DNA of 64,000 nucleotides from Candidatus Phoenicimicrobium oleiphilum (GTDB lineage: Bacteria; Atribacterota; Phoenicimicrobiia; Phoenicimicrobiales; Phoenicimicrobiaceae): positions 12,415 to 76,414 of the forward strand of contig JBDIWJ010000002.1 in the NCBI GenBank assembly GCA_039638295.1, written 5' to 3'. Positions 15,788 to 23,878 of the stretch are shown here, piece after piece; positions within the stretch are counted from its first letter, which is position 1; each line of letters starts with the position of its first letter. Made by a program: the position numbers and the translations under genes. The notes under the pieces are model-generated. The model saw only the letters and a program-made list of their open reading frames with translations. It made no database searches and was not told the DNA's origin.

Positions 15788-18736
15788 ATGTCTAAACTAA
15801 TGAAGATTAAAAACTTGAAGAATTATGGTATCCCCTCTTATATTTTAGATATCTGGAAAAAACATTATTCCCCTTATTTGCTACCAGTACAGGAGGAGGC
15901 GGTAAAAAATTTTGGGGTATTGGATTCCCGCTTCCGCGAGAATGATAGACATAAAAACCTTTTAGTGATCGCTCCCACCTCTTCAGGAAAGACCTTCATC
16001 GGAGAAATGGCGGCAGTGTATCAGGTAATCCATCAGAAAAAGACCATCTTTATAGTCCCCTCAAGAGCTTTGGCCAGGGAAAAATACTGGCATTTTAAAA
16101 ACCTTTATGAGTGCTGCGGATTAGAAACAGTCCTCTTCAGTCGAGACCGCAAGGAAGATGATTACCGCCTAATTATAGGTGACTATAAATTAGCGGTAAT
16201 GTCCTACGAAAAATTTTATTATTTCCTCTTGAAATTCCCCGAATTTCTAACTAGTGTCTCCTTGATAGTAATGAATGAAGTACAGATGATTGATAACCCC
16301 AGATGGGGACCTATCCTGAAAGAGGTGATAGACCTGCTGCGGGGAAAGTATATGCCAAATCTCAGGATTATCGCTCTTTCTACCTTAATAGAAAATCAAA
16401 AAGCCCTCTTAAAATGGTTTCCCGCTCATCCCTTCATTTCTCATCAGCACCCGCAAGAGATACGCAAAGGGATAGTAAGAAAGGGAGTTTTTAAGTATAT
16501 CACCTCAAATAAGAAGAAGACTTTCAAAAAAGAAATATTCTTTAAACCAAATGCCGTCCGGGATAATTGTTTTAAAGATTATCTTCTGGAAACAGTAAGA
16601 TACTTTGTAAATAAAGATGAGCCGACTCTGGTCTTCTTTACTACCTCAGCTGAGACCCGAAAGTGGGCCAAATGGCTAGCTTCTCAATTAGAAACCCCTG
16701 CTGCCTCTTCTGCCCTAAGGGAACTTGCGGAAATGGAAGAGACCCTATCCCGGGAGGAATTGTCTGAGCTATTAAAAAAGGGGATTGCCTATTATAGTCA
16801 GGACCTTTCCTGGGAAGAGAAAAATTTAGTCGAGACTTACCTCAAAAAGGGAGAGATAAAATTGGTCTGTTCTACTATTACCCTATCAACCGGGGTTCAT
16901 ATGCCTTTTAAGAATGTCATAGTTCCTCAAGATATGTTGAATAATTTTGATGAAAATTGTCCCCATAATTATCGAAGAGGTCTTACCTTTTTCGATATAG
17001 AAAATATGAGTGGAAGTGCCAGGGTATCAGGATTTGGTCGAGTAATCTTTTTAGCCTATTCTCTCCTCACTGAGACCATCTTTCATAATCTCTATTTCAA
17101 TTATAATCATAATTATAATCATTATAGGACTTCAAAAACTCAAATAAAAAAGGTAGATGACCTGCTCACTTTCTTGTTGTACTTACTGTCTAAATATAAC
17201 TGCCAACCAGAGAAGATAAAAAATTATTTAAGGGAAGGAAAATTTATCTTTCCCGGAAATCAGAATAAATCTGCTGAAAAAGAAGACTGCTTCTGTGGTT
17301 ACTGGCAGTTTAGCTTTAACCAGGATAATTTAGAGGAAAAGATAGATAATTATCTGAATATTTTAAAAGAGAATAAATTGATTAGAGAGAACAGAGACGG
17401 TATCTTATCTCCTACTATCAATGGTACTCTAATTACTGCTAAGAATATCAAGGTAGAAACTTATCTTTTTTTAAAAAACTGGATGAAACATAGTAAGAAG
17501 GGGGAAATCAGTGATCTGGAGATACTCCTTCTTTTAGCCTTTAGTCCGAATGGTATGGAAATTTTCCTCCCCTGCTCTTCTTCTTGCCGAGATACTTATA
17601 AAAAAGAAAGATATAATCTCGACTGGACAGGGAATTACTGGAACAAACTCCTACAACTGGTCTTTGAACAGGATGAAGAGGATAAGAAGATTTATCAGGA
17701 CATACTTATATTGAAGAAAGAAAAGGAAGAGAAGTTGGAATGGAAGGATTATCTAGCTTTTAAGAAGACTCATTTACTGTATGACTGGATAAAGGAGAGT
17801 AAGGATATTAAAACCCTGGAACAGGAGTATGACCTCTATGGAGGGACTATTCGGAGATTGGTAGATAATTTTTCCTGGCTGACTGATAGTTTGGCAGAAA
17901 TAGCAGAAAGCGAAGGCTGGGGTAAGGATAGAAAAGATGATTTAAATAAGATAAAGAGGCTATCCAAAAGATTGATTGATGGTGTAGAAGAAGATGGTCT
18001 GAATTTATCTCAGTTATATATCCCTGGATTAAGCCGATATTATATAAGAAAATTGGTAGAAGCAGGGTATAGTGATAAGAAATGTTTTAAGGAGACCTCG
18101 GAGGAAAAATTAAGGAAGGTACTGCCCGAGAGATTGGTTAAAAGGATTCAAAAGATGATAAAGGAAGAAAAAGAGATTTTGAAGGGTAAAAGACAAAAGA
18201 TGATGGTTGAGGTTAGAAAATTAGAAGATAGGAAGAGGGAATTAGAAACTAATAAACTTACACCTGAAGCTGGGAAACTAGAACCTGAATTTTATTCTTT
18301 AAAATCTGAAACTGAAAATTATAAATCCAGGCTAATAGCTGAAGACCAAGATGTTGCAATTCGTCAACCCCTGCCCAAAAAGAAAAACTATGAGCCAAAG
18401 ATTATCCTGGAAATTGATCAGCACCGCCCGGATAGGATTATTTTTGAGGAGAAAGAAATAAAACTCACCCCCTTAGCCTTTTCTCTTATCTATTTATTAG
18501 CACAAAACCGAGGAAAGGTATTGTCTTATAATTATATCTCGGATACTCTGTGGAAGGAAGACAAAGATGCTACATACCATCGTCTCTGGTATCATCTATC
18601 TAATGCAAAAAATAATATTATAAAAAGAATCGGTAAAAATAAAAAAAATCAAAATAAAATCAAAAATCTCCTTAAAGTAATTAGAGGAAGAGGCTTGATA
18701 TTGAATATTGAGGAAAAGCAATTAAAAATTCTATAA
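15788..18736 (+). CDS. Hel308/Ski2-like SF2 helicase with degenerate motif II, fused to coiled-coil and C-terminal OmpR/PhoB-type winged-helix DNA-binding domain
   Basis: Walker A APTSSGKT and motif Ia PSRALAREK are present. Motif II reads NEVQ instead of DEVH and motif III reads LST instead of SAT. RecA2 motifs (TLSTGVHMP) are retained and there is a Hel308-type HhH near 730. The C-terminal residues about 860-982 (KLTPLAFSLIYLLAQNRGKVLSYNYISDTLW...) are a trans_reg_C-like winged helix. Confidence 0.8.
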   Translation: MSKLMKIKNLKNYGIPSYILDIWKKHYSPYLLPVQEEAVKNFGVLDSRFRENDRHKNLLVIAPTSSGKTFIGEMAAVYQVIHQKKTIFIVPSRALAREKYWHFKNLYECCGLETVLFSRDRKEDDYRLIIGDYKLAVMSYEKFYYFLLKFPEFLTSVSLIVMNEVQMIDNPRWGPILKEVIDLLRGKYMPNLRIIALSTLIENQKALLKWFPAHPFISHQHPQEIRKGIVRKGVFKYITSNKKKTFKKEIFFKPNAVRDNCFKDYLLETVRYFVNKDEPTLVFFTTSAETRKWAKWLASQLETPAASSALRELAEMEETLSREELSELLKKGIAYYSQDLSWEEKNLVETYLKKGEIKLVCSTITLSTGVHMPFKNVIVPQDMLNNFDENCPHNYRRGLTFFDIENMSGSARVSGFGRVIFLAYSLLTETIFHNLYFNYNHNYNHYRTSKTQIKKVDDLLTFLLYLLSKYNCQPEKIKNYLREGKFIFPGNQNKSAEKEDCFCGYWQFSFNQDNLEEKIDNYLNILKENKLIRENRDGILSPTINGTLITAKNIKVETYLFLKNWMKHSKKGEISDLEILLLLAFSPNGMEIFLPCSSSCRDTYKKERYNLDWTGNYWNKLLQLVFEQDEEDKKIYQDILILKKEKEEKLEWKDYLAFKKTHLLYDWIKESKDIKTLEQEYDLYGGTIRRLVDNFSWLTDSLAEIAESEGWGKDRKDDLNKIKRLSKRLIDGVEEDGLNLSQLYIPGLSRYYIRKLVEAGYSDKKCFKETSEEKLRKVLPERLVKRIQKMIKEEKEILKGKRQKMMVEVRKLEDRKRELETNKLTPEAGKLEPEFYSLKSETENYKSRLIAEDQDVAIRQPLPKKKNYEPKIILEIDQHRPDRIIFEEKEIKLTPLAFSLIYLLAQNRGKVLSYNYISDTLWKEDKDATYHRLWYHLSNAKNNIIKRIGKNKKNQNKIKNLLKVIRGRGLILNIEEKQLKIL

Positions 18737-19084
18737 GGCAAAATTTATGTATCTATAATTTTTAACATTATTTCCAATTTTCTCTCTCATTTAAATTTAA
18801 TTTCACCCTTTTTTCAATCTTATCTTAATCCTCACTTTTAAATCATTCATTATTTTTAAAATCATAAATTTCTTGACTTTTCTTCTTCATTTTTTTTCAA
18901 AAAAACCATCCAAAATTACAAAAAATATTCAAAATAATTAATAATTTTTTTAATAGCTTACGATTAGGATTGAAAATAAAGGCTTACAAAAATATTTTTT
19001 ATCGAATGAAATTAGACTAAAATTTTAACAAAATTAGACTGAAATTAGACTACAAATCAGGGTCTTTTATGTTCTAATAAAAAG

Positions 19085-19440
19085 GGTTAGCCAAAATAGT
19101 CGTTAGTCGTTAGTAGGGCAGGCTCACCTGTCTAGGTAACTGTAGGGCTACGATGTATCTGCCCACATAATTGCTCAATGTCATTGCGAGCGACTATAGG
19201 GAGCGTGGCAATTTCAAATGTAGGGGTTCGATTCATCGAACCCGTTTCGGGGCAGATAAATTAGACCCCTACTTTAAATGTCATTGCGAGCCCTGATTTA
19301 TCAGGGCGTGGCAATCTCATAAGTGTAGGGGCACGATGCATCGTGCCCAGGAAAAACAAATGACCATAAAACAGGGAGGGCACAATTCATTGTGCCCCTA
19401 CAATAATCTCATCTCAAGCTAACCAAAACTTCTAACAGAA
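19085..19440. repeat. cluster of concatenated palindromic repeat units (all four core types)
   Basis: Contains GTCATTGCGAGCGACTATAGGGAGCGTGGCAAT, GTAGGGGTTCGATTCATCGAACCC, GTCATTGCGAGCCCTGATTTATCAGGGCGTGGCAATCTC and GTAGGGGCACGATGCATCGTGCCC...GGGCACAATTCATTGTGCCCCTACAA. Confidence 0.8.
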
Positions 19441-19451
19441 AGGGAAGATAT

Positions 19452-20432
19452 ATGGAAAAAGAAAGACCAAATATTAAAACTAAATTATCTGAAGAAGGTT
19501 ATGTTATTATACCAGCTTATTTTTTAAATAATTGGACCGAAGTATTAGGAACCGGGCCAAGTATGCTGTATATTCAATTACTTAATTACTGTTATAAGGG
19601 AAAGGATATAGCCTGGCCTACTTTGACTACCTTAAGTAAGAAGATGCAACTTACTCCCAAGACTATAACCAGATACCAGAAGGTATTAACCAAATATGGC
19701 TTGATTAAAAAGATAGTCAAGAGAAAGACTTCTTTAGGAAGTTGTAGGAGAAATATTTACCAAGTTACTCCCTTAGATAAGGTAAAAAATTCCCCCCTTA
19801 TGAGTAATTTTTTCCCCTATATAGAGGAAAAAATTACCCCTAATATAGGGAAAAATTTACCCCTAAAGCATAACAATATAAACAATACCAATACAACAAC
19901 AACAAAAGCTGCTGTTGCTGATTTTAAAAAAAGAAAAGGAGAAGAAAAGATGAAAACCCTAAGAGAACAACTACAGGATTTAGATTTTAAAGAAAGCTTT
20001 ATCGAGAAATTACTGAAAGATTTTGACCTTAAGAAGATTGAGGAGAAATTAGATCTGTTATTGGTAAGGAGGAATATCCAGAACCCTACCGGCTGGCTCT
20101 ATGCTGCCTTAAAGAATGATTATCAGGACCCCCAATCCTCTCTGTCCTTCCCGCCATCCCCTTTGTCATTCCCGCGAAAGCGGGAATCCATTAAATCTCC
20201 CCACCAGGAGTCTATGAAGCAAGGTAGGGGCACGATGCATCGTGCCCAGGAAAAACAAATAACCATAAAACAGGGAGGGCACAATTCATTGTGCCCCTAC
20301 AAAATCATAAGTAATGGCAATCTCAGAGAAAATCCTCCCGAACCAGCCTCCCGCCAGAAAGCCCTAAAGGCTATAAGACTCATCCGAAAGAATCTCTCTT
20401 CCCTCTCCCCGGGAGGGAGAGGACCAGGCTGA
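19452..20432 (+). CDS. HTH_36-type helix-turn-helix protein (phage/plasmid replication-organizer-like); C-terminal about 90 codons read through repeat elements
   Basis: N-terminus YVIIPAYFLNNWTEVLGTGPSMLYIQLLNYCYKGKDIAWPTLTTLSKKMQLTPKTITRYQKVLTKYGLIKK matches the HTH_36 pattern. After about residue 235 the frame runs into the repeat cluster at 20140-20430 without a stop. Confidence 0.55.
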   Translation: MEKERPNIKTKLSEEGYVIIPAYFLNNWTEVLGTGPSMLYIQLLNYCYKGKDIAWPTLTTLSKKMQLTPKTITRYQKVLTKYGLIKKIVKRKTSLGSCRRNIYQVTPLDKVKNSPLMSNFFPYIEEKITPNIGKNLPLKHNNINNTNTTTTKAAVADFKKRKGEEKMKTLREQLQDLDFKESFIEKLLKDFDLKKIEEKLDLLLVRRNIQNPTGWLYAALKNDYQDPQSSLSFPPSPLSFPRKRESIKSPHQESMKQGRGTMHRAQEKQITIKQGGHNSLCPYKIISNGNLRENPPEPASRQKALKAIRLIRKNLSSLSPGGRGPG

Positions 20433-20625
20433 GGATAGAATATATGAGTTTGATTCATCGAACCCGGTAATCGTAGGACAGGCGTCTCGCCTGTTTAGGC
20501 AAATGTAGGGGTACGATGTATCGTGCCCCCATAACAGCAATAGTGTCATTGCGAGCCCTGATTTATCAGGGCGTGGCAATCTCAAATGTAGGGGCTTTAT
20601 TTATCAAGCCCCCCAGAAAGGAGAA
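20140..20625. repeat. about 500-bp array of palindromic repeat units ending in an AGAAAGGAGAAGATTA ribosome-binding sequence
   Basis: GTCATTCCCGCGAAAGCGGGAATC, GTAGGGGCACGATGCATCGTGCCC...GGGCACAATTCATTGTGCCCCTACAA, CCTCTCCCCGGGAGGGAGAGG, GTAGGACAGGCGTCTCGCCTGT and GTCATTGCGAGCCCTGATTTATCAGGGCGTGGCAATCTC, followed by the GAAAGGAG RBS. Confidence 0.8.
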
Positions 20626-20631
20626 GATTAG

Positions 20632-20955
20632 ATGTCTGAACTAAAAGAACTAATTTTACAGGCCAAACAGAAAGACGTAAAGGCAATGGAGGAATTATTT
20701 CTAAAATTTAGACCCTTACTAAAATCCCAAGCCAAAAGGTATGCCAGAGCAGGATTAGAATATGAGGAGGTCTTCCAACAGGCCTCCTTACTCTTTATCC
20801 TGGCAGTCTATGACTACCAGGAAAAGGAAAGTATTCCCTTTGCCGGCTATGTTAAAAAGAGAATCAATTGGGGGCTGTGGATGTACTATCGGAAATATCT
20901 TAAACAAAGAATAGAGATCTCCTCTGGCCTAAAACCAGAAGAACTGAACCAGTAG
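20632..20955 (+). CDS. sigma-70 region 2-only protein (RsoA/co-sigma-like half of a split sigma factor)
   Basis: FLKFRPLLKSQAKRYARAGLEYEEVFQQASLLFILAVYDYQEKESIPFAGYVKKRINWGLWMYYRKY resembles sigma-70 region 2.1-2.4 (group 4/5 sigma). The stop codon TAG is supplied by the first bases of the inserted repeat. Confidence 0.65.
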   Translation: MSELKELILQAKQKDVKAMEELFLKFRPLLKSQAKRYARAGLEYEEVFQQASLLFILAVYDYQEKESIPFAGYVKKRINWGLWMYYRKYLKQRIEISSGLKPEELNQ

Positions 20956-21095
20956 GACAAGCATCTTGCCTGTCCAGGCAAATGTAGGGGCACGATGTAT
21001 CGTGCCCCCATAATGGCAATAATGTCATTGCGAGCGACTATAGGGAGCGTGGCAATCTCAACCGTAGGGACCTGTTTCATCAAACCCATAGAAAG
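20953..21095. repeat. palindromic repeat element inserted between the sigma region-2 and region-4 ORFs, carrying the AGAAAGGAGAAGATTA RBS at its 3' end
   Basis: GTAGGACAAGCATCTTGCCTGTCC, GTAGGGGCACGATGTATCGTGCCCCC, GTCATTGCGAGCGACTATAGGGAGCGTGGCAATCTC, then AGAAAGGAGAAGATTA. The same 16-mer precedes the ORF at 20632. Confidence 0.8.
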
Positions 21096-21105
21096 GAGAA
21101 GATTA

Positions 21106-21306
21106 TTGGATAGATTAGAACATATCTTAATAAAAATCGATCTAAAAGAAGCTTATAAACGACTAACCGAAAGAGAAAAGAAGATTATCACTCTTTATTA
21201 TCTGGAAGGATATAAAGATGAAGAGATAGCCAGATTATATGGAATCAATCGTCAAAATGTAAATCGTCAACGTAAACGAGGAATATCAAAATTAAAAATA
21301 TTTTAA
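21106..21306 (+). CDS. sigma-70 region 4-only protein (SigO-like half of split sigma factor), TTG start
   Basis: LDRLEHILIKIDLKEAYKRLTEREKKIITLYYLEGYKDEEIARLYGINRQNVNRQRKRGISKLK is a sigma region 4.2 HTH. The TTG start lies 8 nt after the GAAAGGAG RBS. The listed 103-aa ORF has a repeat-derived N-terminus. Confidence 0.6.
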   Translation: MDRLEHILIKIDLKEAYKRLTEREKKIITLYYLEGYKDEEIARLYGINRQNVNRQRKRGISKLKIF

Positions 21307-21393
21307 TTTTTTTTAAATAACTGTAGCGAAATCACCCCTTTTTTGCATCTATATAAATAGAGGGAGTTTTTAGTCAAACTAAAAACAGTAACC

Positions 21394-21464
21394 AGTAATG
21401 AGTAATAAGTAAAAGCCATAAAGATACAAAATTACCTTGTTTATCACTTATTACTCGTTACTTA
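21394..21464 (+). other. long imperfect inverted repeat (about 19-nt arms, 30-nt loop) between the sigma gene and DUF1659 gene; candidate terminator/attenuator
   Basis: AGTAATGAGTAATAAGTAA ... TCACTTATTACTCGTTACT. Confidence 0.35.
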
Positions 21465-21469
21465 TTACC

Positions 21470-21493
21470 CTAATTGACCTATAGGTCAATTAG
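21470..21493. promoter_or_regulatory. perfect 24-bp palindrome CTAATTGACCTATAGGTCAATTAG, candidate operator
   Basis: Perfect dyad 20 nt upstream of the DUF1659 gene RBS. It shares the GGTCAATT core with downstream AATTGGT iterons. Confidence 0.4.
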
Positions 21494-21514
21494 GCAGAAG
21501 GGAGGTGATTAATA

Positions 21515-21742
21515 ATGGCCACAGTCGTCATAGTTCCCCGAGATTCATCTTTACAACTAAGACTGGTAGCTGGCACTAATCCTACTACCGGAGCACCTAT
21601 CATTCAAGCCAAGACTTTTAATAAAATAAAGTCCAGTGCAATCGACCAGGATATCTATGATGTAGCTACTGCCTTGGTAGGGCTACAGAAGTACCCGGTA
21701 GATGAGATCAGACTGGAAAAAGAATCCCAATTAACTGAATAG
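21515..21742 (+). CDS. small protein, DUF1659-like
   Basis: 75 aa with GGAGGTG RBS. Resembles the Firmicutes DUF1659 family, which pairs with DUF2922. Confidence 0.45.
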   Translation: MATVVIVPRDSSLQLRLVAGTNPTTGAPIIQAKTFNKIKSSAIDQDIYDVATALVGLQKYPVDEIRLEKESQLTE

Positions 21743-21825
21743 TCGTTAGCTCAAAAGAAAGTAAATATTTAAAAATAAATCAATCAATCAACCTTCCCTA
21801 ATTGGCAATGGTCAACCATATTTAT

Positions 21826-21863
21826 GAATTGGTCAATTGGTGGATTGGTGAATTGGTCAATTG
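21826..21863 (+). promoter_or_regulatory. five direct AATTGGT iterons (GAATTGGTCAATTGGTGGATTGGTGAATTGGTCAATTG) immediately upstream of RBS
   Basis: Direct inspection. A similar triple iteron lies at 22919-22946. Confidence 0.35.
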
Positions 21864-21881
21864 ATAAGGAGGTGAAAACAG

Positions 21882-22154
21882 ATGGCTACCACTTTAGGAC
21901 AAGTAACCACATATAAGAGATTGTATATGCAGTTTAGAGATAGTGCAGGAAAATCGGTAAACCTTACCCTAAATAACCCTAAGACTGTAGAGGATGGAGA
22001 TTATGTGGATTTTGCAGCCCAGGATACCGCTATTGAGGGGGTAATGGATACCATCATTGCCAAGAACATCTTCCATAATAATGGTAATGACTTAGTAGCT
22101 AAAGTCAATGCTCGAATCCTTGATTACAAGTCTACTGATGTTATGGATGTATAG
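21882..22154 (+). CDS. small protein, DUF2922-like
   Basis: 90 aa with AAGGAGGTG RBS. Pattern ...LTLNNPKTVEDGDYVDFAAQD..IIAKNIF...LVAKVNARI resembles DUF2922. Confidence 0.45.
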   Translation: MATTLGQVTTYKRLYMQFRDSAGKSVNLTLNNPKTVEDGDYVDFAAQDTAIEGVMDTIIAKNIFHNNGNDLVAKVNARILDYKSTDVMDV

Positions 22155-22189
22155 CTCAGGGGCTACCACCCCTTGGCGGTTAGCTGGTT

Positions 22190-22345
22190 AGCTAGTTTAC
22201 CAGTTAAGTTCCTGGGGGAGGTAACTCCCTCAGGAACAGATATGTAGGGGTCTGATTCATCAGACCCGAACAATAATGGGTCGGATAAATCCGCCCCCCT
22301 ACCCTAAAAGTCATTGCGAGCGACTGAAAGGAGCGTGGCAATCTC
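22190..22345. repeat. palindromic repeat units (GTAGGGGTCTGATTCATCAGACCC, GGGTCGGATAAATCCGCCCCCCTACC, GTCATTGCGAGCGACTGAAAGGAGCGTGGCAATCTC)
   Basis: Direct inspection. Confidence 0.75.
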
Positions 22346-22380
22346 TTAAAAACTATTTTCGACTGAAAGGAGAAAATTAT

Positions 22381-22761
22381 ATGTTAGAAACAATTTTAAG
22401 TAAATATCTATTAAATGCCTTACTTATTGCTATCGTCTCTCTCGGTTATGGTCTCTTAAAAAACAGATTAGGAGAAGAGAGAGCTAACACCATTAAAGAG
22501 GCCATTCTCTCGGCTATGCTCTGGGCAGAAGAGGAATTGGGTATAGGCAATGGGAGTAAGAAATGGGAGATAGCCTGGCAAAAGCTTATAGAGATATTAG
22601 CCGAGAAGAATATCAGCCTGAGAAAGTCAGAGGAGAAAGCGGTAAAGACGATGATGAAAGCCAATATTGGGAAGATTAACCGACAGACCTATGATGTCTT
22701 ATTGAAGAAAAAACTTTTGAAAGACAAAGGTCCTGTTCAGCAGGCAATCCCCCTAAACTAG
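22381..22761 (+). CDS. phage holin, LL-H (Phage_holin_6_1)-like
   Basis: ATG at 22381 after CGACTGAAAGGAG RBS. N-terminal TM helix, then ...IKEAILSAMLWAEEELGIGNGSKKWEIAWQKLIEIL typical of LL-H holins. Confidence 0.5.
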   Translation: MLETILSKYLLNALLIAIVSLGYGLLKNRLGEERANTIKEAILSAMLWAEEELGIGNGSKKWEIAWQKLIEILAEKNISLRKSEEKAVKTMMKANIGKINRQTYDVLLKKKLLKDKGPVQQAIPLN

Positions 22762-22774
22762 CCATTGTTTAATA

Positions 22775-22900
22775 ATTGTCGGTTGGATAGGCGTCTCGCC
22801 TGTCTACAATGTCATTGCGAGCCCTGTTTTATCAGGGTGGTACAATCTCTACTGTAGGGAATCGATTCATCTAACCTGTCTTTTTGAGTCGGATAAATCC
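22775..22900. repeat. palindromic repeat units (GGATAGGCGTCTCGCCTGTCTACA, GTCATTGCGAGCCCTGTTTTATCAGGGTGGTACAATCTC, GAGTCGGATAAATCCGTCCCCTACA)
   Basis: Direct inspection. Confidence 0.75.
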
Positions 22901-22975
22901 GTCCCCTACATAATTAGACAATTGGTAGATTGGAGAATTGGTAAATTAACTAACGACTGAAAGGAGTTAGTTCTT

Positions 22976-23356
22976 ATGCAGATGTTAAATGAAGTAAATA
23001 ACATCGATATTGCTCCTTACTTTAAATTATCTGAATTTGCCTGCCCCTGTTGCCGACAGGTGATCTTACACCCTCTACTCTTAAAGAAACTCAGTAAGTT
23101 AAGAGAAACAGTTAATAGACCTCTCTACATTACCTCTGGCTATCGCTGTCTCGGGTATAATCGGAAAGTAGGTGGGATAAAGACCAGTTATCACCTTCTG
23201 GGTCTGGCCGCAGATGTTAGGGCAAAAGGGATGTCTGCCCTTGACCTTTTAGAATATGCGGAGATTATCAATTTTTCGGGAATCGGTTTTTACGAGAAGA
23301 GGAATTTCCTGCATCTGGATGTCCGACCTACTAAACAGAGCCGCTGGAGGGGATAA
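22976..23356 (+). CDS. peptidase M15A family (YcbK/DUF882-like L,D-peptidase; endolysin-type)
   Basis: SEFACPCC...ITSGYRCLGYNRKVGGIKTSYHLLGLAADV...LHLDVR carries the H-x6-D ... H zinc-binding pattern of M15 peptidases. Confidence 0.8.
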   Translation: MQMLNEVNNIDIAPYFKLSEFACPCCRQVILHPLLLKKLSKLRETVNRPLYITSGYRCLGYNRKVGGIKTSYHLLGLAADVRAKGMSALDLLEYAEIINFSGIGFYEKRNFLHLDVRPTKQSRWRG

Positions 23357-23384
23357 AATAGTCGTTAGTAGGAAAGAAGTTAAG

Positions 23385-23590
23385 ATAAGAGACGTAGGGG
23401 CACGATGTATCGTGCCCAGGATAAACAAATGACGATAAAGCAGAGAGGGCACAATTCATTGTGCCCCTACAAAATCATAATAAACAATAATGTCATTGCG
23501 AGCGACTATAGGGAGCGTGGCAATCTCATAATTTATTAGATTGCTTCGTCGTTACACTCCTCGCATTGACATTTTGAGATTGGTATATTG
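23385..23590. repeat. palindromic repeat units including an inverted pair of GTCATTGCGAGC...GCGTGGCAATCTC units
   Basis: GTAGGGGCACGATGTATCGTGCCC...GGGCACAATTCATTGTGCCCCTACAA then GTCATTGCGAGCGACTATAGGGAGCGTGGCAATCTC and a diverged reverse copy GATTGCTTCGTCGTTACACTCCTCGCATTGACATT. Confidence 0.75.
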
Positions 23591-23608
23591 AATTAAAGGA
23601 GGGAATAT

Positions 23609-23878
23609 ATGGATATAAAGACATGGTTAGATATAATTGCTAACCAGGGCTTCCCTATTGCCTTATCAATACTCTTAATTTTTCGTATCGACAGATTTAT
23701 GCAGGAGATAGTGACTGCCCAGAAAGAAGGCTATCGGCAAGTCCTGGAAAACACCAAGGAGATACACAATACTATCACTACTTTAAATCAGCAGAACCGG
23801 GAATATTATTCCTTGCGCTTCTCAGAAGTACAGAAGGAACTCTCTGGAATGAAGGTAGAACTGGGGAAAATTGAATAA
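23609..23878 (+). CDS. BhlA/UviB-family holin-like protein
   Basis: MDIKTWLDIIANQGFPIALSILLIFRIDRFMQE... has an N-terminal TM followed by a coiled coil, like BhlA/UviB bacteriocin-release holins. Confidence 0.55.
   Translation: MDIKTWLDIIANQGFPIALSILLIFRIDRFMQEIVTAQKEGYRQVLENTKEIHNTITTLNQQNREYYSLRFSEVQKELSGMKVELGKIE

Follow-up and report, generated by a model that had tools for sequence, protein, structure and literature searches.

A probable two-subunit sigma factor encoded by adjacent sigma-2 and sigma-4 genes in Atribacterota

A 64,000-nt stretch of DNA from Candidatus Phoenicimicrobium oleiphilum (here called the window) carries two adjacent open reading frames (ORFs), ORF1 and ORF2, which encode the region 2 and region 4 halves of a sigma-70-family factor on separate proteins. 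They are best read as a naturally split sigma factor that arose by an old fission and whose junction was colonised later by repetitive extragenic palindromic (REP) elements, a reading to which a probability of about 80% is given. The pair is likely, by analogy with SigO-RsoA of Bacillus subtilis, to act as a two-subunit sigma factor. The window was compared with 81 fetched loci, making 82 sources in all, of which ten have no usable pair; in these the contig ends too early, except in L029, where the pair is broken by unrelated DNA. The two genes are:

20632..20955, + strand: ORF1, sigma-2 subunit (regions 2.1-2.4), 107 aa, ATG start, identified by Pfam Sigma70_r2, HTH_16 and a structure model
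21106..21306, + strand: ORF2, sigma-4 subunit (regions 4.1-4.2), 66 aa, TTG start, identified by Pfam, NCBIfam and homologues

ORF1 is a complete sigma-2 domain. It matches Pfam Sigma70_r2 (E 3.6e-5, 23.9 bits against a cut-off of 24) as well as HTH_16, and a profile of its homologues matches residues 14-86 of the sigma-F chain 1l0o_C in the Protein Data Bank (PDB; E 6.5e-5). The AlphaFold model (predicted local distance difference test score, pLDDT, 89.9) returned sigma region 2 in all of its top 50 Foldseek matches (template modelling score, TM, 0.6-0.77; root-mean-square deviation ~2 A), so that an earlier reading of the letters of this DNA (the sequence-only reading) was right to see region 2 and nothing else here. 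Homologues of ORF1 form 606 clusters, and the best 120, which were inspected for length, all have 104-111 aa. Among homologues the aromatic and basic residues of regions 2.3-2.4 (F70, Y73, W80 and R87) are invariant, and the tail past an invariant G-L-x-P has 2 to 8 residues, stopping where the repeat starts. The ratio of nonsynonymous to synonymous substitution (dN/dS), computed for related loci against the window, is 0.11, with dS ~1-1.5. Public annotation (HBY57029.1/MEN3189320.1) labels the protein 'hypothetical'.

ORF2 is a complete sigma-4 domain. It covers the Pfam profiles Sigma70_r4_2 (42.4 bits) and Sigma70_r4 (41.9 bits) end to end, both at ~5e-11 and above cut-off, and is thus all of region 4; the sequence-only reading had named the right region and confined it too narrowly to 4.2. 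NCBIfam TIGR02937 was matched at 52.9 bits (cut-off 42.9), and the PDB matches are to region 4 of WhiG, FliA and sigma-F, the last over residues 189-240 of 1l0o_C. Homologues form 484 clusters, the best 120 of which are mostly exactly 66 aa long; in almost every locus the alignment begins at the N-terminal residue 1, with start codons TTG in 47, ATG in 24 and GTG in one, and dN/dS is 0.24, again at dS ~1-1.5. In public annotation (MEN3189321.1, 'sigma-70 family', 103 aa) the start is placed at ATG 20995, within the repeat, which would add 37 repeat-encoded residues (20995-21105). The conserved 66-aa homologues and the Shine-Dalgarno (SD) sequence point to TTG 21106 as the start instead. The dN/dS values indicate purifying selection on both ORFs, which are old functional genes and not pseudogene fragments.

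Homologues of the two ORFs are adjacent and co-oriented in 72 of the 82 sources, that is, in all 72 informative loci. Homologues of each half nearly all stand alone, and the best 120 of each come from Atribacteria/Atribacterota wherever the source is named; on these data the split of the sigma factor is phylum-wide in Atribacterota. The spacer between the genes ranges from -4 to 340 nt (median 110), its sequence is unrelated between lineages, and the relative frames of ORF1 and ORF2 are spread over 22, 21 and 29 loci. Eight loci have short spacers (<=30 nt). Junctions free of repeats occur in L005/6 and L019, where stop and start overlap as TTGA, in L046, where TAA is followed directly by TTG, in L028, with a 4-nt gap and no GTAG hairpin unit, and in L009 and L016, whose spacers of 22 and 30 nt hold no hairpin unit either. 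A further short junction, in L060, has a 17-nt spacer, and ORF1 continues there through repeat-derived sequence up to its stop. The loci lacking the repeat, with which the sequence-only reading had proposed a comparison, therefore have the same two genes side by side, overlapping or 0-30 nt apart. These repeat-free loci lie at the base of a neighbour-joining tree rooted on fused sigma factors and carrying no support values.

For distant relatives of ORF1, 1.8 billion representative proteins were searched exhaustively with HMMER. The nearest ones outside the Atribacterota cluster are single-chain sigma factors of ~180-200 aa (33-39% identical, E to 1.6e-10). Both halves align in order with the closest of these (179-192 aa), and the concatenated halves leave a gap of only ~15 columns, in the linker; in P0262 (179 aa), residues 5-89 are matched by ORF1 (E 3e-17) and residues 114-174 by ORF2 (E 1e-12). 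The summed length of the halves, 107 + 66 = 173 aa, compares with 179-192 aa in these relatives. The idea that the halves are contiguous pieces of one sigma factor is upheld by this alignment. The fused relatives P0255, P0258, P0262 and P0268 (Cellulosilyticaceae) have DUF1659 and DUF2922 genes directly after them and YvrJ nearby, and DUF1659/DUF2922 adjoin four of seven intact fused relatives and the frameshifted P0280 (locus L082), mostly with YvrJ. Since the homology and the neighbours are both shared, the two halves descend from one gene, and since the split form is seen only within Atribacterota, fission is a simpler account than fusion.

Two observations on relatives stand apart from this. 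P0280 (L082 1373-1910) is a fused sigma factor, flanked by DUF2922, DUF1659 and a YvrJ-like gene, with a change of frame at an A7 run and its sigma-4 part in the +1 frame; the break could stem from faulty assembly, pseudogene decay or slippage, and P0280 was rejected as a sigma-2-only protein outside Atribacterota because it is a fused gene broken at that run. In the non-Atribacterota locus L092, a 60-aa ORF with sigma-4 only (161-343) lies just 5' of the fused 189-aa P0269 and may be another stand-alone region-4 protein.

The transition from one gene to two would have involved an ancestral single-chain sigma factor of ~180-190 aa, split within the linker between sigma-2 and sigma-4. The sigma-2 protein (104-109 aa) would dock on the RNA polymerase clamp, recognising and melting the -10 element, the sigma-4 protein (66-69 aa) would contact the flap and read the -35 element, and by analogy the two would assemble on core RNA polymerase as one sigma factor without a covalent linker. 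It is unlikely that the products act separately, the sigma-4 protein as a small helix-turn-helix (HTH) regulator and the sigma-2 protein as an RNA-polymerase-binding modulator or decoy. Such roles would be in keeping with small stand-alone region-4 proteins elsewhere, such as the ORF upstream of P0269, and with the indirect grounds for assembly, but they fit poorly with strict adjacency and co-orientation in all 72 loci, with the in-order alignment to fused sigma factors that have the same downstream genes and with the invariance of F70, Y73, W80 and R87 in regions 2.3-2.4.

The 150 nt between the ORF1 stop and the ORF2 start are largely occupied in the window by repeats, which recur as related arrays nearby:

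20952..21088, + strand: array of four GTAG-type REP-like hairpin units, 137 nt, between ORF1 and ORF2
20952-20975, + strand: unit A, GTAGGACAAGCATCTTGCCTGTCC, hairpin with GTAG head
20984-21008, + strand: unit B, GTAGGGGCACGATGTATCGTGCCCC, hairpin with GTAG head
21024-21059, + strand: unit C, GTCATTGCGAGC...GGCAATCTC, hairpin without GTAG head
21064-21088, + strand: unit D, GTAGGGACCTGTTTCATCAAACCC, hairpin with GTAG head
20473..20612, + strand: paralogous A-B-C-D array 5' of ORF1; the ~155-nt blocks before the two ORFs are ~85% identical
19113..19244, + strand: third A-B-C-D array, followed by further hairpin units and no 16-mer

The GTAG at 20952 heads the hairpin of unit A, and its TAG (20953-20955) is the stop codon of ORF1, exactly as had been proposed from the letters alone. 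What had been described as a 140-bp palindromic repeat is instead a run of four separate hairpin units in one orientation without terminal inverted repeats; a single large palindrome or miniature inverted-repeat transposable element was rejected because the ends of the 137-nt array are not complementary, and no target-site duplication flanking the array is visible in the sequence. Unit C is of a different subtype in the arrays before ORF1 and before ORF2. The window spacer, with the same array, recurs only in L002 (94% amino acid identity), and the window arrays resemble their L002 orthologues more closely than they resemble each other, so that ongoing gene conversion between the two paralogues is not supported.

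By their sequences the repeats are GTAG-type REP elements in clusters like bacterial interspersed mosaic elements (BIMEs). About 35 GTAG-plus-palindrome units are present in the 64 kb, intergenic, clustered and in both orientations, and a scan for GTAG plus hairpin gave 49 candidate matches against a mean of 11.2 in simulated windows. At eight sites inverted doublets, similar to REP doublets forming hairpins (REPINs), show constant spacing: GTAGGGGCACGATGCATCGTGCCC, ~30 nt, then GGGCACAATTCATTGTGCCCCTAC.

19325/19401, 20224/20300, 23394/23470, 45268/45343, 46329/46404, 52802/52878, 59583/59657, 59850/59926: inverted doublets

No REP-associated tyrosine transposase (RAYT) was found by a Pfam scan among ten window ORFs of 120-188 aa, and no known RNA families were found in 18700-23700. 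The junction hairpins may only modulate mRNA stability or the ORF1:ORF2 ratio, as REP elements near stop codons are reported to do in E. coli. TAG ends ORF1 in 57 of 82 loci, often as GTAGGACAGG..., and ORF2 in two of 67; GTAG is found at the ORF1 stop in 42 of 82. GTAG REPs are known to donate TAG stops (PMC3733652), so the repeat side of the finding is ordinary.

The regions from which translation of the two ORFs would begin are:

20615..20630, + strand: SD region of ORF1, the identical 16-mer AGAAAGGAGAAGATTA, with the ATG after 1 nt
21090..21105, + strand: SD region of ORF2 (AGAAAGGAGAAGATTA), in which GGAG (21095-21098) ends 7 nt before the TTG

The window has no other exact copy of the 16-mer than these two. 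The sequence-only reading had correctly noted the identical copy before each ORF, and had misplaced the second one 8 nt before the TTG, which it abuts directly. It had further taken the 16-mer for the 3' end of the repeat. In the third array unit D leads into another hairpin, and the repeat accordingly ends at unit D, leaving the 16-mer outside. No other copy of the array units in the window has the 16-mer after it, and its membership of the repeat family was rejected on the strength of the third array and a window-wide search. Across loci, an SD precedes ORF2 in 70 of 72, and in 55 of 71 a GAAAGGAG-type SD stands exactly 7 nt before the start, whatever lies upstream. The 9-mer AGAAAGGAG is the commonest SD form at both ORFs. 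The SD of ORF2 is coded by the last codons of ORF1 in L005/6, L019, L028 and L046 (for example, QERK = CAGGAAAGGAAA). The suggestion that the repeat carries its own ribosome-binding site is contradicted by this spacing, which is independent of repeats, and by the tight junctions in which the site falls within ORF1 codons. A hairpin before the SD (20% for ORF1, 29% for ORF2) is not clearly more frequent than the window background. Within the 64 kb, GAAAGGAG has five copies, all within 20.6-23.0 kb: four (20616, 21091, 22365 and 22959, + strand) serve as SDs for ORF1, ORF2, a holin-like gene and an M15 peptidase gene, and the fifth, at 22326, is the centre of a C-type repeat unit, with which the holin-like and peptidase SDs share CGACTGAAAGGAG.

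It is improbable that insertion of a GTAG-REP into the ancestral linker was itself the fission event, with a ribosome-binding site recruited from or travelling with the repeat and the tight junctions formed by later deletions. Just as doubtful is the original proposal of the sequence-only reading, that a mobile palindromic element entered a single sigma gene, gave it both a stop and a portable SD, and created or maintains the split; for the window array this is already largely refuted. Although the GTAG does provide the stop, and TAG at the ORF1 stop in 57 loci makes the junction repeat widespread, the two-gene state is found in all 72 loci, with unrelated spacers or with no repeat. The array and the 16-mer do stand as a block before both ORFs, with a 16/16 identity unique to this lineage, and SD-like CGACTGAAAGGAG does occur in the centre of some repeat units (e.g. 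22320-22335), yet an SD at the same spacing is found everywhere, within ORF1 coding sequence in tight junctions, the third array copy has no 16-mer, and two of the four GAAAGGAG cassette SDs are not beside unit D. The divergence of the genes (dS of at least 1) is moreover far older than an array shared only with L002. Were a repeat to have made the split, this would be a natural instance of a miniature repeat dividing a gene, and the blocks of hairpin plus SD before several cistrons would be portable translation-initiation units.

Under the preferred reading of an old fission with later colonisation, the original junction was probably tight, with the SD of ORF2 in the last codons of ORF1 and the start of ORF2 either overlapping the ORF1 stop or following it within a few nt. 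GTAG-headed units would later have lodged in the sole tolerant spot, between the GL(K/N)P end of ORF1 and the SD, and their arrival, repeated or ancient, would have removed a few ORF1 tail codons and given the TAG stop. The SD of ORF2 would be native to the gene and not borne by the repeat.

Several points weigh against this reading. ORF1 lies 0.1 bit below the Pfam Sigma70_r2 cut-off. Of 71 loci, only the window and L002 have 16/16 identity between the two ribosome-binding sites, which differ at 2-10 of 16 positions in the other 69; this identity may reflect duplication of array and SD together as one block, or convergence of the two sites towards a shared consensus. GTAG or TAGG at the ORF1 stop in 42-49 of 82 loci indicates that the junction repeat is old and widespread. 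The direction of change, fission rather than fusion, is drawn solely from the split form being seen only within Atribacterota, and support values are lacking for the tree in which the repeat-free junctions are basal. The linker of single-chain group-4 sigma factors passes through the RNA exit channel; a split sigma factor has no linker there, so its assembly is not guaranteed, and both assembly on RNA polymerase and expression of the halves are predictions from sequence.

A decaying pseudogene, in which repeat insertion knocked out a sigma gene and left ORF2 behind untranslated, is very improbable. A single in-frame stop does part same-frame halves in the window, and ORF1 is annotated as 'hypothetical', but each half has hundreds of homologues at fixed lengths, dN/dS values are 0.11 and 0.24, and SD and start are conserved. 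The shared frame with one stop and a spacer is found in the window alone among the 22 same-frame loci and is consequently attributed to chance. Stop-codon read-through or recoding, which would use the single TAG between the same-frame ORFs of the window to make one 224-aa protein with a repeat-encoded linker, has next to no probability and is ruled out by frame and stop statistics across loci, frame 0 occurring in only 22 of 72, with the frame open only in the window and in the spacer-less L046, and closed by TGA in L002, the closest relative.

The pair is followed by four genes in the window and in dozens of Atribacterota loci:

21515..21742, + strand: DUF1659 gene (Pfam 2.7e-21), syntenic in related loci
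21882..22154, + strand: DUF2922 gene (Pfam 2.1e-17), 83-94% identical across loci
22381..22761, + strand: holin-like membrane protein (Phage_holin_6_1, E 1.7e-5, just above cut-off), syntenic
22976..23356, + strand: Peptidase_M15_3 cell-wall peptidase (Pfam 8.4e-23), syntenic

On the 5' side of the pair are a DnaD-like HTH gene and a helicase gene whose product ends in a Trans_reg_C DNA-binding domain. The whole cassette (15788-23356) forms a + strand island with reversed GC skew amid - strand housekeeping genes such as def, lspA and divIVA, and its synteny extends to dozens of Atribacterota contigs. The DnaD-like HTH_36 ORF (19452-20432) runs on without a frame break through a REP doublet (20217-20325) and further units, and its last ~110 residues are repeat-encoded (e.g. 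SFPRKRESI, GTMHRA); either repeats were inserted in frame or the ORF was called too long.

Within the ORF1-ORF2 spacer, neither a sigma-70-type promoter nor an intrinsic terminator was found on the + strand, and the two genes are therefore probably co-transcribed, with separate initiation at each SD. A conserved motif lies beyond ORF2:

21328..21364, + strand: conserved motif GAAATCACCCCTTTTTTGCATCTATATAAATAGAGGG, present once in the window, candidate promoter for the DUF1659 operon and candidate target of the split sigma factor

The motif, GAAATCACCYCTTTTTTGCATCTATATAAGTAGAGGG, is found 25-26 nt past the ORF2 stop in most of 62 loci, with repeats never lying between, and is neither sigma-70-like nor terminator-like. 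Its position points to a candidate cognate promoter driving the DUF1659-DUF2922-holin-peptidase genes, at which transcription by the split sigma factor would start a few nt past the TATAAATAG element. Autoregulation through a second copy of the motif 5' of ORF1 was considered and rejected, none being present in the window or the other loci.

The promoter-like motif is followed by a conserved hairpin, GTTTTTAGnnnnnCTAAAAAC (together 21328-21378 in the window), and by a leader of 100-350 nt to DUF1659, which holds repeats in many loci, never between ORF2 and the motif. In 40 of 53 loci a 10-N4-10 palindrome (21471-21494 in the window) stops 0-8 nt short of the DUF1659 SD, and in 24 of 38 one lies likewise before the DUF2922 SD. 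It commonly takes the form GCAATTAACC-N4-GGTTAATTGC, as against CTAATTGACC..GGTCAATTAG in the window, and the arms co-vary between lineages. There was no Rfam match to the palindrome, which could be an RNA 5' hairpin stabilising the cistron or a DNA operator.

The B. subtilis SigO-RsoA pair is the only natural two-subunit sigma factor met in the literature looked at, and limited keyword searching of the literature found no publication on an Atribacterota split sigma factor. The present locus would be a second case, conserved across a phylum and cut exactly in the linker, with the fused ancestor type still recognisable by the shared neighbours DUF1659 and DUF2922. A re-classification of extracytoplasmic function (ECF) sigma factors leaves split-domain factors still to be surveyed (PMC7826278). 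The split pair makes it testable whether sigma-2 and sigma-4 work without a linker, offers for testing a candidate cognate promoter 25 nt 3' of ORF2, and is a possible part for two-input genetic logic, as in the SigO-RsoA AND gate. Two items of public annotation are corrected, namely the 'hypothetical' label of ORF1 and the ORF2 start inside the repeat.

As regards known systems, the repeats resemble described GTAG REPs and BIMEs (PMC3733652, PMC2817692, PMC3333891) in their 5' GTAG followed by a 20-25-nt imperfect palindrome and in their high copy number, intergenic clustering, both orientations and inverted doublets. They differ in that the window array has four units in one orientation with a recurring A-B-C-D order, and in that its unit C has no GTAG head.

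The single-chain sigma factors of Firmicutes (e.g. Cellulosilyticaceae MEG0708439.1) share with the pair in-order homology and downstream DUF1659-DUF2922, and differ in being one polypeptide. Their downstream genes lie within ~40-120 nt and are probably co-transcribed, and YvrJ takes the place that the holin-like gene and the M15 peptidase occupy in the Atribacterota cassette. In phage T4, the late sigma factor gp55 is region-2-only and a second small protein, gp33, occupies the region-4 flap site. The likeness to the split pair is promoter recognition by region 2 only together with a second small flap protein; unlike the pair, this is a phage system in which the sliding clamp is needed and gp33 is not a sigma-4 DNA-binding domain.

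The ECF sigma factor SigS of S. aureus induces a DUF1659/DUF2922 pair, sroAB, ~1000-fold as its strongest target (bioRxiv 10.1101/2022.10.19.512975). As in the Atribacterota cassette, a small alternative sigma factor is functionally tied to this gene pair; unlike the split factor, SigS consists of one chain, and that study does not report sroAB as adjacent to sigS (bioRxiv 10.1101/2022.10.19.512975). The link to the split-sigma locus is an analogy only.

The closest likeness by description is to SigO-RsoA, which the sequence-only reading had named and which is borne out in that the halves are conserved as separate adjacent genes: in both systems sigma-2 and sigma-4 are on separate polypeptides encoded by adjacent, co-oriented genes. 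In B. subtilis the order is sigO (sigma-4) and then rsoA (sigma-2), with the membrane anti-sigma factor RsiO and oxdC nearby, whereas in Atribacterota it is sigma-2 and then sigma-4, as in ordinary sigma domains. The Atribacterota cut is clean and in the linker, and the lengths sum to those of a normal small sigma factor; the host phylum differs, no RsiO-like membrane anti-sigma factor was seen adjoining the pair, and the neighbours are instead the helicase, the DnaD-like HTH protein, DUF1659, DUF2922, the holin-like protein and the M15 peptidase. No NCBIfam model named for SigO or RsoA was among the matches. For SigO-RsoA, the genes of which have been termed the 'sigO-rsoA operon' (PMC10028694), sigma-4 and sigma-2 reside on separate proteins and both are required (PMC8103513, PMC10028694). 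The SigO-RsoA regulon includes yvrJ, and it is YvrJ genes that adjoin the fused relatives of the Atribacterota pair.

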